DNA of 16,826 bases from Candidatus Moanibacter sp. (GTDB lineage Bacteria; Verrucomicrobiota; Verrucomicrobiia; Opitutales; UBA2987): NCBI GenBank assembly GCA_965215885.1, contig CBDCEW010000059.1:1-16826 (forward strand), in the 5' to 3' direction. Each line of letters opens with the position of its first letter. Position 1 is the stretch's first letter. The notes below the pieces were generated by a model that searched no databases, was not told the origin of the DNA, and saw nothing but the letters and a program-made list of their open reading frames with translations. Positions 13,097-16,826 of the stretch are shown piece by piece. The position numbers and the translations under genes are program-made.

Positions 13097-14424
13097 TGCT
13101 ACGAAGCGAGCGGGTGGACGCCCTTGGGCTTGAGCGCGGGATATGGCCGCCAACGCGAAGATTTCTATCAACGCCATGAGCGTCCCAAGCAGATCTGGGT
13201 CAAACCCCTCAAGGCTAATGCCCTTGAGCTTTTGCGCGCTTCAGGGCCATTGCCCGCGGCACAGAGCCAGGCGCTCAATGAAACCGATAACTCCCATGCG
13301 GTCTGCCTCAAAGTGGAACAGATGAGCAGCCTGTGGGAACGCTTCAATCAGATAGAAGACTTCCGTCGTAAAGCGGGCCTTAGATATCGGCTCGCCACGG
13401 TCCTGAGCATGATTGTGCTCGGCACGATGTGCGGCAAACAGACCCTCAAGGGCATCGTGCGCCTGGCCCATCATCTCAATCAAGCCCAATTGCGCGCCTT
13501 ACGCTCCTGGAAAAACCCCAAAACAGGCCGCTATAAGGCCCCTTGCTATGATGTCTTCTATCGGGTCTTGCAAAACGTAAAGGCCGAGCTCTTCGATAAA
13601 ACCCTCACCGAATTCATCTGCTTACAAGACGGCTGTTTGCCCCGCGATATTGCCGTCGACGGCAAGACCCTCAAAGGCACAAACACCGAAGAATCAAAGG
13701 CTCTGCACCTGGTGGCCGCAGTCGATCACCAAAGCGCTCAAACCTTAGCCCAAGTCGCTACCGCCGATAAATCCAACGAGATCACCGCCGCCCAGACTCT
13801 CTTGCGAAAGATGCCCATTTTGGACGGCTCCACCTTCACCTTCGACGCCATGCATAATCAAAAAGAAACTGCCCACATCGTCGTCGAAGAACTCAGTGCT
13901 GACTATGTTATTCAAATTAAAGACAATCAGCCCAACATGCATCAATACGCTCAGAATCTCTTCAGCTCCACCCCCTTTTTCTCCACCAAACCGTGGACAA
14001 TGACCATGGGCGACTCGAAATACGTCAAATAGCAACCCATTCTCTAAGCGCTCCCTCTGCCGGCCTGCCCCATGCCCGCCAGTTCGCCTGTGTGCAACGC
14101 ACCTTCCATTATCCAAACAAAGCTGAACCTTCCTCTGAACGCTCTTACTACGTAAGCAGTCTCGATCCCGCCGATTTGAGCCCTCAACAGTTCCTCTCGA
14201 AAATTCGCAACCATTGGTCGATCGAAAATAAAAATCATTACCCCAGGGATCGCTTCTTCGATGAAGATCGATGTATGATCCGTAATCATAACGCAGCCAG
14301 AATTCTTGCTGCATGCAGGCAACTGGTTCTCAGCCTCAAGTCTTCCATGGGCGCTGAATCCACTCCCGCACTCTGTGATGATTTCGTCTTTAACTTACAT
14401 AAGGCCATCAATATCATCACCTAA
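13097..14424 (+). CDS. 3' part of the ISAs1 transposase (rest of DUF4338, DDE-associated domain, DDE domain) in two frames joined by a -1 shift at C5T5 (13971-13980)
   Basis: DFRRKAGLRY, IAVDGKTLKG, KSNEI, TFDAMHNQ, IKDNQP, then HGRLEIR and RNHWSIENKNHYPRDRFFDED. Confidence 0.92.
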
Positions 14425-14492
14425 TGCTCCGAGAATCATCGTGCAGCCGTGGGTTCTTTTTATGTTCCGGATGCACTCGAATTCATTGAACG

Positions 14493-14679
14493 GAAGGTAG
14501 TCTGCAGACGGCAGAGCACCGCATTGTGATCGCCGTAGTGATGAGGTTTCTCGATTCCCTTTGCGTCAAAGAACCTAGAGTGTCATCCAGGAATCTTATA
14601 GTAGCTCCAGGTTATTCATCCAAGGGGCCGAGTGGAGCCGCAGGAAAAACTCGGCGAGGCCCCTTTGTGAATAACTTGG
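14493..14679 (+). ncRNA. Orphan structured non-coding segment resembling the left-end non-coding region of another IS110-family element
   Basis: Stems ACGGC/GCCGT (14508-12/14532-36), AGGTT/AACCT, CTTTG/CAAAG (14559-71), and a long hairpin at 14607-14679. The family resemblance (GCACCGCATT...GCCGTAG...GAACCT...AATCTTATAG) is from memory only. Confidence 0.4.
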
Positions 14680-14733
14680 CCGATCAGTGGTTGGCGATGG
14701 GTCAAAGAGTTTGTTTGGCTAAGGGTGAAAATA

Positions 14734-14900
14734 TTCAAAGGCAGCCGTCCACTACGAACTTAGGAATCAGTCCGAAGAGGACTTCCGACAGAATTTCGAG
14801 TGGACGGCCTGCCTGGATGACCGAAAACGAACACTCAGTTTACATCCTCATAACAGGATCCAACTATAAGGACTTCGCCTGGACATCCAGTGCCTTTGAA
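14734..14900 (+). ncRNA. Bridge-RNA-like guide RNA of the IS110 element
   Basis: Closing stem TTCAAAGGCA/TGCCTTTGAA (10/10). Arm 1 GCCGTCCACT/AGTGGACGGC (10/10) with an internal loop and hairpin AGTCC/GGACT. Arm 2 CTGGATG/CATCCAG with an internal loop and hairpin ATCCT/AGGAT. Loop segments match the flank and the donor end. Confidence 0.8.
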
Positions 14901-14933
14901 AAAAGCAAAAAGACAAACTAAAGGAACAAAGGG

Positions 14934-16244
14934 ATGCAGAAAAGGGAAAAAACAAATCGATATAGTGTGGTGATAGGAATTGATTGGGCGGATCAGAAAA
15001 ACGATCTGTGGATCATAGAGAGCGAAACGGGAAAAGGGACCCATCGACAGGTGGCGCAGGATGCGGTCAGCTTGCACGAATTTGCCGTAGAGATGAGAGA
15101 AAAGTATGCCAGCGTGGGCAAGCGCATGGCCATGGTGGTGGACCAGAAGCGAGGAGGGTTGATCAACTTTCTGATGGGCTTGGAGTTTGTCGATATCTAT
15201 CCAGTGCATGCGGCCAGGGCGAAGGATTATCGCCGGGCGCTGTATCCATCAGGGGCCAAGAGCGACCCGGTCGATGCGCAAATACACGCGGAGTTTTTCC
15301 TCAAACATCCCGAGCTTTTTACCAAATGTTTCATACCTGACACGGCCCAAACACGGGAGCTGAACCTGTTGTGCGAGGACCGCCGTGGATTCGTCGATCA
15401 GGCTACCAGCCTCGAACAGCAGTTGGGCAGTTGTCTGAAGCAATATAACCCTTTGGTCTTGAAATTGTTCGATGATCTAGGCAGTGGCCTGTGCCTGCAC
15501 TTTATATTGCGTTGGCCGACCCTCAAGAAGCTGCACAGAGCATCGGAGGGTGTCTTGCGAAAGTTCTTCTATAAGCACAACTGTCGCAGTGACGCCAAAA
15601 TCCAGGAGCGTCTCGAATTGATCGGTAACGCACGAGCCTTGACCGAAGATGCAGCCATCATTGAAGCATCCAGCAGAAAAGCACAGACGTTGGCCGGACA
15701 GCTTTTGACCCTGTGCCCGCAGATCAAAGCGTATGAGAAGCGTATCAGGGAGCTATTCAGAAGCCATCCCGATGCAGCCGTGTTCAGTGGCATTCCCGGA
15801 GCCGGCGAGGTCATGAGTCCCCGGTTGCTGTGCGCGTTCGGGACCGATCGTTCGCACTTCGAAACGGCCCAGAACATGACCCAGTGGAATGGATCCGCTC
15901 CGGTCACGATCAACAGCGGGCAGGACAAAAGAACCGGACAACCGAAACGAATGGTCAACTGGCGGTGGGCGGCTCCTACCTTCGTGCGGCAAAGTTTCGT
16001 TGAATTTGCCGAACATTCGATCCGAAACTGTGCCTGGGCAAAGGCCTTTTACCAGATCAAAAAAGAACAGGGCAAACCCCGCCAAACCATTCTTCGTGCC
16101 CTCGCTCTCAAGTGGACCCGCATTCTGTTTCGCTGTTGGCAAAATAGCGAACGCTACGATGAGCAAAAGTATCTCCAATCGCTCCAACGCACCGGTTCAC
16201 CGGTGTGGAAAAGACTTCAGCAAGCAAATGCCAACGCCTTGTAA
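14934..16244 (+). CDS. IS110-family (DEDD) recombinase/transposase
   Basis: 436 aa, intact. IGIDWAD, VVDQKRG, KSDPVDA, GIPGAG, GSAPVTINSG (catalytic-serine motif), RALALKWTRILFRCW. Confidence 0.96.
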   Translation: MQKREKTNRYSVVIGIDWADQKNDLWIIESETGKGTHRQVAQDAVSLHEFAVEMREKYASVGKRMAMVVDQKRGGLINFLMGLEFVDIYPVHAARAKDYRRALYPSGAKSDPVDAQIHAEFFLKHPELFTKCFIPDTAQTRELNLLCEDRRGFVDQATSLEQQLGSCLKQYNPLVLKLFDDLGSGLCLHFILRWPTLKKLHRASEGVLRKFFYKHNCRSDAKIQERLELIGNARALTEDAAIIEASSRKAQTLAGQLLTLCPQIKAYEKRIRELFRSHPDAAVFSGIPGAGEVMSPRLLCAFGTDRSHFETAQNMTQWNGSAPVTINSGQDKRTGQPKRMVNWRWAAPTFVRQSFVEFAEHSIRNCAWAKAFYQIKKEQGKPRQTILRALALKWTRILFRCWQNSERYDEQKYLQSLQRTGSPVWKRLQQANANAL

Positions 16245-16566
16245 ACACAACATGAGAAAAAACTCAAAAAATCCCTTGACGGACTACCTCAGTTTTCTGT
16301 CGGAATTCGCTTTTCTAGACTTCCCTGAGGTACGGATTCTTAGGTGAGAGATTGAGATACCGACGAAGATTGAGACCGACAGATTCCTTCGAAGAAAATG
16401 AACCTGAGATTTGAGACAATTTGTAATACCTATTGCGTCCTTGGCTGAGATTCCTCCGATATAGAGTTGAGGCCCCTGCATTCATCGTGGAAAAATCGTT
16501 TAAAGCACATCGGCCGAGGAAAACTTCGACCACTCTCCCACAATTCTCAGATTCATTTTCTTATTG

Positions 16567-16634
16567 CTAGCAACCTGTCGGAATGAAACTGAGTAACTCT
16601 GCCGAAAGAAGCATAAAGTCCGACAGGTTGCTAG
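16567..16634. repeat. 68-bp MITE/REP-like element with perfect 16-bp inverted repeats
   Basis: CTAGCAACCTGTCGGA (16567-16582) and TCCGACAGGTTGCTAG (16619-16634); CTAG at both ends. Confidence 0.8.
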
Positions 16635-16650
16635 GCCGGAGCAATCAGCT

Positions 16651-16826
16651 ATGAAACGCAGGCTGAAGCATGTAGAATCTACTGAGCGAAGGGTATGGTT
16701 AGCTGCCCTCGCAATTGTCGTCCTGGTGCCGGCAATCGGGATGGGATTTCGAATTGTCGATAAAGCAACGCAAGAGCCACCTGTAGAAGAAGCTTCTCTG
16801 CTATCATTTTCCGCGAAACCCTCTAT
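16651..16826 (+). CDS. Partial gene: membrane-anchored or exported hypothetical protein (runs off the window)
   Basis: GGAG RBS; MKRRLKHVESTERRVWLAALAIVVLVPAIGMGF..., a basic N-terminus followed by a hydrophobic stretch. Confidence 0.6.
   Translation, partial: MKRRLKHVESTERRVWLAALAIVVLVPAIGMGFRIVDKATQEPPVEEASLLSFSAKPS

Follow-up and report, generated by a model that had tools for sequence, protein, structure and literature searches.

What does the folded left end upstream of the recombinase gene in this window (the whole stretch of 16,826 nucleotides that was analysed) do, and does it recognise DNA in the way the bridge RNA of IS621 does? We propose that 14734-14900 very probably encodes the bridge RNA of an IS110-group insertion sequence (14597-16296) that is complete and was recently active, with a mechanism taken over by analogy from IS621. 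The anatomy of the element, the complementarity between guides and DNA, the genomic copies with their sites, and the covariation in the family can all be observed directly. As far as the sequence can tell, all structural and comparative features that define an IS110-group bridge system are present, and expression, binding and reprogramming are predicted. The original prediction had described a natural, intact IS110 RNA-guided recombinase with its bridge RNA at this place, and the guides, the intact copies and the family covariation now support it. The system is thus a known kind of RNA-guided recombinase in a new host, and it leaves the current picture of how IS110 elements work unchanged. The coordinates of all features are given in Table 1.

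Table 1. Features of the insertion sequence, its bridge RNA and its insertion site, with the second target arms of three related loci. Positions are those of the window unless a locus is named.
Feature	Position	Strand	Basis or remark
Left target half LT, AGGAAT, outside the element	14589-14594	+	AGGAAT in 9/10 full copies
Left core dinucleotide CT	14595-14596	+	CT at both junctions, 10/10 copies
IS110-group insertion sequence	14597-16296	+	1,700 bp between two CT cores; 10 genomic copies
TATAGT, right donor half RD and -10 box	14597-14602	+	Reverse complement of RDG 14863-70
Long 5' stem-loop, 71 nt, at the predicted transcript 5' end	14608-14678	+	Fold of the left end
Closing helix, 5' strand	14734-14743	+	Pairs with 14891-14900; compensatory changes in 9/9 pairs (helix 1)
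Target-binding-loop arm (TBL)	14744-14808	+	Fold, covariation; TBL-only model R2, 58.4 bits
Left target guide LTG, UUAGGAAUC	14760-14768	+	Sense of LT plus first core base; matches AGGAATC 14589-95
Right target guide RTG, UCCGAC, with core complement AG (14790-91) and handshake AA (14792-93)	14784-14793	+	
Donor-binding-loop arm (DBL)	14813-14890	+	Fold; helices 4-6 all with compensatory changes
Left donor guide LDG, CUCAGUUUAC	14834-14843	+	Sense of right end CTCAGTTTTC; single mismatch at the base beside the core
Right donor guide RDG, ACUAUA, with core complement AG (14869-70) and handshake positions GA (14871-72)	14863-14872	+	
Closing helix, 3' strand	14891-14900	+	Fold and covariation
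Recombinase gene, 436 aa, DEDD_Tnp_IS110 and Transposase_20	14934-16244	+	Pfam; intact in 10/10 copies
TTGACG, -35 box of the predicted split junction promoter, right end	16276-16281	+	17-nt spacer 16282-16298 to TATAGT on joining
Left donor half LD, CTCAGTTTT, final bases of the element	16288-16296	+	Direct reading and copy comparison
Right core dinucleotide CT	16297-16298	+	Comparison of genomic copies
Right target half RT, GTCGGAA	16299-16305	+	Canonical sites: GTCGGA 7/9, GTCGGT 2/9
Remainder of the interrupted ~100-bp dispersed repeat bounded by inverted repeats	16297-16390	.	Genomic repeat comparison
Second, unoccupied target variant of the same repeat copy	16375-16388	-	Repeat comparison
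Second target arm, locus L039	L039:650-714		TBL-only model R2, 67.7 bits
Second target arm, locus L084	L084:663-727		TBL-only model R2, 61.6 bits
Second target arm, locus L085	L085:676-740		TBL-only model R2, 54.6 bits

The element, its copies and its target repeat

The protein encoded by the element matches both Pfam domains of the group, PF01548 (DEDD_Tnp_IS110, 1.2e-17, 64.5 bits against a cut-off of 29) and PF02371 (Transposase_20, 2.3e-09, 38 bits against a cut-off of 21.3), and the profile of its family matches the solved recombinases of IS621 (8wt6, 6.2e-15) and ISCro4 (9t56, 5e-14). The catalytic residues of IS621 are D11, E60, D102, D105 and S241 (Hiraizumi 2024, PMC11208158), and alignment to IS621 predicts D17, D70, D111, D114 and S328 as their counterparts. 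D17, D111 and D114 are conserved in 30/30 aligned relatives and S328 in 29/30. Residue 70, the second catalytic acid, is Asp in 4/30, namely this protein and its three nearest relatives (70-79% identity), and Glu in 26/30. The score with NCBIfam NF033542, 'IS110 family RNA-guided transposase', is 119.2 bits and below the cut-off of 140, which marks a remote branch, the threshold being a measure of sequence and not a functional feature.

The non-coding left end of the element is long (337 bp), the right end is short (52 bp), and terminal inverted repeats are absent, an anatomy that characterises the IS110 group. The left junction reads AGGAAT (14589-94), CT (14595-96) and TATAGT (from 14597). 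There are 10 left ends and 11 right ends of the element in the genome, the 11th right end lying at a contig start. The 10 full copies differ from each other at 0-2 positions per 1,700 bp; the recombinase ORF is intact and the RNA region identical in all of them, and it is only outside 14589 to about 16305 that their flanks diverge. Nine of the ten lie in the context nnAGGAAT-CT-GTCGG(A/T)n, with CT on both sides. Read by analogy with the IS621 scheme, the target is AGGAAT-CT-GTCGGA and the donor, at the circle junction, is CTCAGTTTT-CT-TATAGT. Near-identical copies occur in 17 sequencing runs from several studies. Neither a circle joint nor an empty-site joint was found in the contigs of four runs, where several bins were without cover, and nothing is concluded from this.

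In the earlier reading the left end stood about 130 bp to the right of its real position, with CTAAGGGT (14719-14726) taken as the left flank. This word is internal to the element and identical in 10/10 copies; its resemblance to a guide is spurious, and the true left end is at 14597.

The exact 14-bp target has 159 copies in the genome against 0.05 expected from composition, and the number rises to 382 with at most one mismatch and to 595 with at most two. An abundant dispersed repeat of about 95-105 bp carries it as its terminal inverted repeat. The same preference for a dispersed repeat is found in ISPpu10 and in IS621, whose target lies in REP elements (Durrant 2024, PMC11208160). Further downstream in the window, 16570-16640 contains a palindromic unit, TAGCAACCTGTCGGA...TCCGACAGGTTGCTA, both arms of which carry the target's right half with one base changed; it looks like a further member of the CTGTCGGA-type repeats of the host.

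One of the ten copies (L010, G000:C84:54652-56300, minus strand) lies outside the usual target. Its site, ACCTCAGTTTA-CT-TATGGGG, resembles the donor junction of the element itself and agrees with the left donor guide at 10/10 positions, including the base at which the real donor mismatches. By analogy, this copy corresponds, in a natural genome, to the donor-like or 'half-match' off-target insertions described for IS621 (Durrant 2024, PMC11208160; Xie 2026 preprint, 10.64898/2026.08.31.748434). An inverted duplicate of its right flank, 3 kb or more in length and with 5 mismatches, adjoins a second right end at the start of the contig (C84:1-491). The copy on contig C25 has the same right flank as the window copy (window 16299-16826; 528 nt compared, 2 mismatches) and an unrelated left flank, which points to duplication, to recombination among the copies or to strain variants within the assembly. 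On a single contig of run X3, from another sample, the left end of the element (14595) is joined to ...AGGAATCTGTCGGACTTTGAATTC, an insertion 17 nt deeper in the same target repeat with an intact target adjoining. Two copies have tRNA-like left flanks; ARAGORN found no tRNA within the window.

Fold, guides and proposed mechanism

The minimum-free-energy structure of 14720-14935 (-66 kcal/mol) consists of two stem/internal-loop arms inside a 10-bp helix. The two arms and the outer stem 14734-14743/14891-14900 had been predicted in this form, and covariation at 9/9 pairs of the helix agrees with the fold. The bridge RNA region has a z of -5.28, with 0/200 shuffles equally stable, and the entire left end a z of -5.41. 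The hairpin at 14608-14678 corresponds to what the published consensus names the '5' stem-loop' (Durrant 2024, PMC11208160). The verrucomicrobial relatives L031-L033 have a clearly similar hairpin at this position, and different hairpins stand there in other clades. From the left end to the closed RNA there are 137 nt here and 65-323 nt across the family. The loci with longer left ends (243-323 nt; L050-L052, L059, L074, L078, L080, L086, L101 and L104) have an extra GC-rich hairpin, in form GGGGTGCAGGGGAAGGGG...CCCCTTCCCCTGCATC, which may be a small repeat inserted inside the leader. Within 14000-16826, no Rfam 15 family matches at E <= 1. A phrase search in the running text of papers found none on a bridge-RNA three-way junction in IS110, and novelty is not claimed.

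All four guides are present in the two loops, and their polarity is that of IS621, as had been noted for those guides recognised at first. In the target loop, TCCGACAGA (14784-14792) is the exact reverse complement of TCTGTCGGA (16296-16304), and in the donor loop, CTCAGTTT (14834-14841) is identical to 16288-16295; direct reading agrees with the original prediction on both. UCCGAC-AG (14784-91) is complementary to CT-GTCGGA, and together with the handshake bases the right target guide (14784-14793) is the reverse complement of TTCTGTCGGA (16295-16304). The right donor guide had been reported as missing, with the suggestion that donor recognition might differ from that of IS621. It was overlooked because the left end had been misplaced: ACUAUAAG (14863-14870) is the reverse complement of CTTATAGT (14595-14602) and complementary to CT-TATAGT. 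With this guide found, and better conserved in the family than any other loop segment (CUAUAAGG), the supposed departure from IS621 falls away.

The right guides (RTG and RDG) contain AG for both core bases, and the left guides (LTG and LDG) cover the first core base only, with CA where CU would match. According to the handshake rule, the two bases that follow the core complement on its 3' side pair, once the strands have been exchanged, with the non-cognate DNA (Hiraizumi 2024, PMC11208158). In the target loop, AA (14792-93) is complementary to the donor TT (16295-96), and because of this pairing the RNA has 11-nt complementarity to the integrated right junction of this copy. In the donor loop, GA against the target AT gives a G-T wobble and an A-A mismatch, a poor fit.

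Chance matching was assessed with 20,000 dinucleotide shuffles of 14734-14900, scored by the longest shared word. The observed word was reached by 1859/20,000 shuffles for LT in sense (7 nt), 39/20,000 for RT in antisense (10 nt), 333/20,000 for LD in sense (8 nt) and 52/20,000 for RD in antisense (8 nt); two or more guide words were matched together in 36/20,000 and all four in 0/20,000. Since so many shuffles reach its 7 nt, the LTG match is weak by itself; the set of four matches is not chance. With ten near-identical copies, hundreds of empty targets and a full guide set, the element is a self-consistent natural example of a bridge-RNA system from an uncultured host.

A promoter for this RNA is predicted only across the joined ends, and a promoter scan of the linear window, as would then be expected, found no promoter-like site for it. 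Once the right and left ends join through one CT, the sequence would read as a split promoter, TTGACG-17 nt-TATAGT. In the homologues, TTGAC(A/G/T) with a 16-18-nt spacer to TATAGT is present in 28/29 unique right ends. The predicted transcript start near 14609 is at the foot of the 71-nt hairpin (14608-78). Contigs from RNA libraries cover the left end at 14650-14883 (depth 21.5) and 14589-14889 (depth 13.7), and the 5' part of the ORF has a depth of 2.6-5.9; these contigs come from two metatranscriptome runs of one study, are blind to ends, strand and level, and possibly include DNA, and they give a weak hint that the RNA is expressed.

From the parallel with IS621 we infer transcription, RNA-protein binding and chemistry as follows. 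The excised element would circularise, so that its right end is joined to its left end. This join would build a sigma-70 promoter with TTGACG, a 17-nt spacer containing the CT core, and TATAGT. The transcript, starting at about 14609, would carry the 5' stem-loop and then the closed three-way junction with its two internal-loop arms, and the DEDD/Ser recombinase (14934-16244) would bind this bridge RNA. By means of LDG (14834-43) and RDG (14863-70), the donor loop may pair with the two strands of the circle junction CTCAGTTTT-CT-TATAGT, and by means of LTG (14760-68) and RTG (14784-91), the target loop may pair with the two strands of AGGAAT-CT-GTCGGA. Strand exchange at the CT core would then insert the element with CT on each side, and the preferred target would be the terminal inverted repeat of the abundant ~100-bp genomic repeat.

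Covariation in related loci and competing readings

The recombinase has 1,588 homologous proteins at E <= 0.001, the nearest 79% identical and most of them 41-48% identical and 418-445 aa long. A related-locus search with the single protein found no relatives; a profile of 30 homologues led to 80 loci in the genomes of Verrucomicrobiota, Acidobacteriota, cyanobacteria and other phyla, with proteins 35-46% identical. The covariance model R1, built from the RNA of the window alone with the guide loops unpaired, has a plus-strand match upstream of the ORF in 60/80 of these loci (E 6e-20 to 3e-4), 58 matches being full length and 2 cut by contig ends. Some of the 20 loci without an R1 match have short upstream sequence, and the TBL-only model R2 recovers L087, L102, L103 and L105; many of the remaining misses are cyanobacterial.

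Standard pairs fill 94.3% of the alignment cells versus 33-48% when the partners are slid by 1-3 columns, in an alignment that was fitted to the model and thus favours the structure. Changes on both sides are seen in 42/47 stem pairs, and 6/6 helices are supported, the outer closing helix at 9/9 pairs. The words in the donor loop are conserved (aCUCAGAUG; CUAUAAGG nearly invariant, 60 loci) and those in the target loop are variable, which is the pattern of the published bridge-RNA consensus (Durrant 2024, PMC11208160).

The ends of the homologues were located by their own RDG and LDG words, and guides were scored against flanks in a fixed register after 11/62 alignment rows had been dropped (8 misaligned loops, 3 minus-strand or partial matches). 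For LTG and the left flank (30 unique guides), cognate pairs score 5.10/8 versus 2.34 for non-cognate pairs; for RTG and the right flank (22 unique guides), the scores are 4.77/6 versus 1.75; 0/10,000 permutations reach the cognate score on either side, and as kin share guides and targets, such shuffle and permutation counts overstate independence. The fixed register is off by one base in several clades (e.g. L045 and L057), thus understating the matches. A covariance model of the homologues combined with a search for covariation between loops and flanks had been put forward as the check on the guide reading; it has now been run and is positive (60/80 loci; both flanks covary). In the stems, loops, flanks and split promoter of the family, the covariation or conservation is that expected under the IS621 model. 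The rules known from IS621 are thereby extended to recombinases of ~430 aa in a distant branch, with 35-46% identity among them.

Considering that the left end immediately precedes the ORF and that nothing terminator-like separates the two, it might serve as a cis-regulatory 5' leader only, which controls translation or stability or yields regulatory small RNAs and guides nothing. Earlier work proposed small RNAs that modulate expression of the ISPpu9 recombinase (cited in Durrant 2024, PMC11208160). We consider this very improbable, since the loops match and covary with DNA outside the element (0/10,000 permutations on both sides) and the second loop holds both senses of both element ends. 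It is barely credible, too, that the end and flank words inside the element work as double-stranded subterminal repeats bound by the recombinase, with the RNA structure being incidental. The LDG and RDG words do repeat the element's ends, and subterminal inverted repeats are present in IS1111 relatives (Durrant 2024, PMC11208160); however, 42/47 stem pairs are kept through two-sided changes in several phyla, which means selection on a folded single strand, and the guide words always lie in the internal loops of the fold, while the target words are absent from the ends of the element.

The element could also be an inactive relic, with guide matches that reflect past function. The change from E to D at catalytic position 70 would fit a relic, as would the fact that no circle junction was seen in the contigs of four runs. 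The same E-to-D change, however, occurs in the three nearest relatives at 70-79% identity, the ten copies have 0-2 differences with all ORFs intact and RNA regions identical, and near-identical copies are found in 17 runs from several studies; we thus give next to no weight to a loss of activity.

Known systems and the wider branch

Taken as the bridge RNA of an IS110-group element, the structure closely follows that of IS621 of E. coli (Durrant 2024, PMC11208160; Hiraizumi 2024, PMC11208158). Both systems have a recombinase with DEDD RuvC-like and Tnp/Ser parts, and an RNA in the long left end with the order 5' stem-loop, target loop, donor loop. In both, the left guides are in top-strand sense, the right guides are complementary, and the core is CT. 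The promoter, predicted here from sequence, is split over the junction of right and left ends, the target lies inside a dispersed repeat, the target loop is variable and the donor loop conserved, and insertion sites are occasionally donor-like.

The differences from IS621 are of degree. The recombinase has 436 aa here versus 328 residues in the PDB chain of IS621, with ~80 extra residues between the RuvC and Tnp parts; sequence similarity is only remote, and the NF033542 score is under the cut-off. A 9-10-bp helix here closes both arms into a three-way junction, a feature unmentioned in the IS621 passages compared here. The left end is 337 bp long versus 191 bp, and RTG has 6-7 nt versus 4 nt in the native IS621 RNA (Durrant 2024, PMC11208160). 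LTG and LDG cover one core base here, and D replaces the second catalytic E. The naturally long right target guide and the closed RNA architecture may be of interest for the engineering of bridge recombinases.

ISPpu10 of Pseudomonas putida, one of the six elements in Fig. 6 and Extended Data Fig. 10 of Durrant 2024 (PMC11208160), is an IS110-group element whose insertions are all in one conserved repeated intergenic sequence with stem-loop potential (Na 2026, 10.64898/2026.03.19.712850); its repeat, guides and host are other than those found here. ISCro4 (PDB 9t56) is the second solved relative (family profile 5e-14), and it differs in the same ways as IS621. Hiraizumi 2026 (PMC13626964) is also among the papers cited. 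The IS1111 group, with its seekRNA, shares the recombinase superfamily and an element-encoded two-loop guide RNA. In IS1111 elements the RNA is in a long right end, and there are subterminal inverted repeats of 7-17 bp (Durrant 2024, PMC11208160), whereas here the RNA lies in the left end and the right end measures 52 bp. Indeed, the RNA model matches the left end only, in 10/10 copies, which places the element outside the IS1111 group.

In three of the 80 loci (L039, L084 and L085), a second complete target-binding arm lies upstream of the closed bridge RNA. The left guide of the extra arm is UCGC(A/G)GAGCC and that of the main arm U(C/U)GCGUUGCC; the right guides are nearly identical. The flanks of L084 agree with the extra arm at 6/8 and 5/6 positions versus 4/8 and 4/6 for the main arm (counted by hand), and the left flank of L095 agrees with the extra guide of L084 at 8/8 positions. 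From their guide words, the two-arm relatives suggest one element with two target specificities. Phrase searches of the literature found no paper on two target-binding loops in one bridge RNA.

A broader proposal can be offered only tentatively, and we think it rather unlikely to hold as a whole: the 1,588 proteins may form a large branch of bridge recombinases, maybe undescribed in detail, in which the RNA is a closed three-way junction that tolerates added modules such as the second target arm in L039, L084 and L085. In this proposal, the covarying helix ties the 5' and 3' ends together, and one RNA molecule must therefore hold both loops. If the proposal is true, the second target arm would enable a single element to use two kinds of target.

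Upstream of the IS110 element, the window contains a DDE transposase (DDE_Tnp_1_assoc and DDE_Tnp_1) at 13124-14424, which is split over the overlapping frames 13124-14032 and 13993-14424; it is probably an insertion sequence with a frameshift. In the non-RNA runs X2 and X3, the contig depth over 14300-14438 is 147-393 versus 20-48 for the IS110 element; 14300-14438 is therefore a high-copy repeat.
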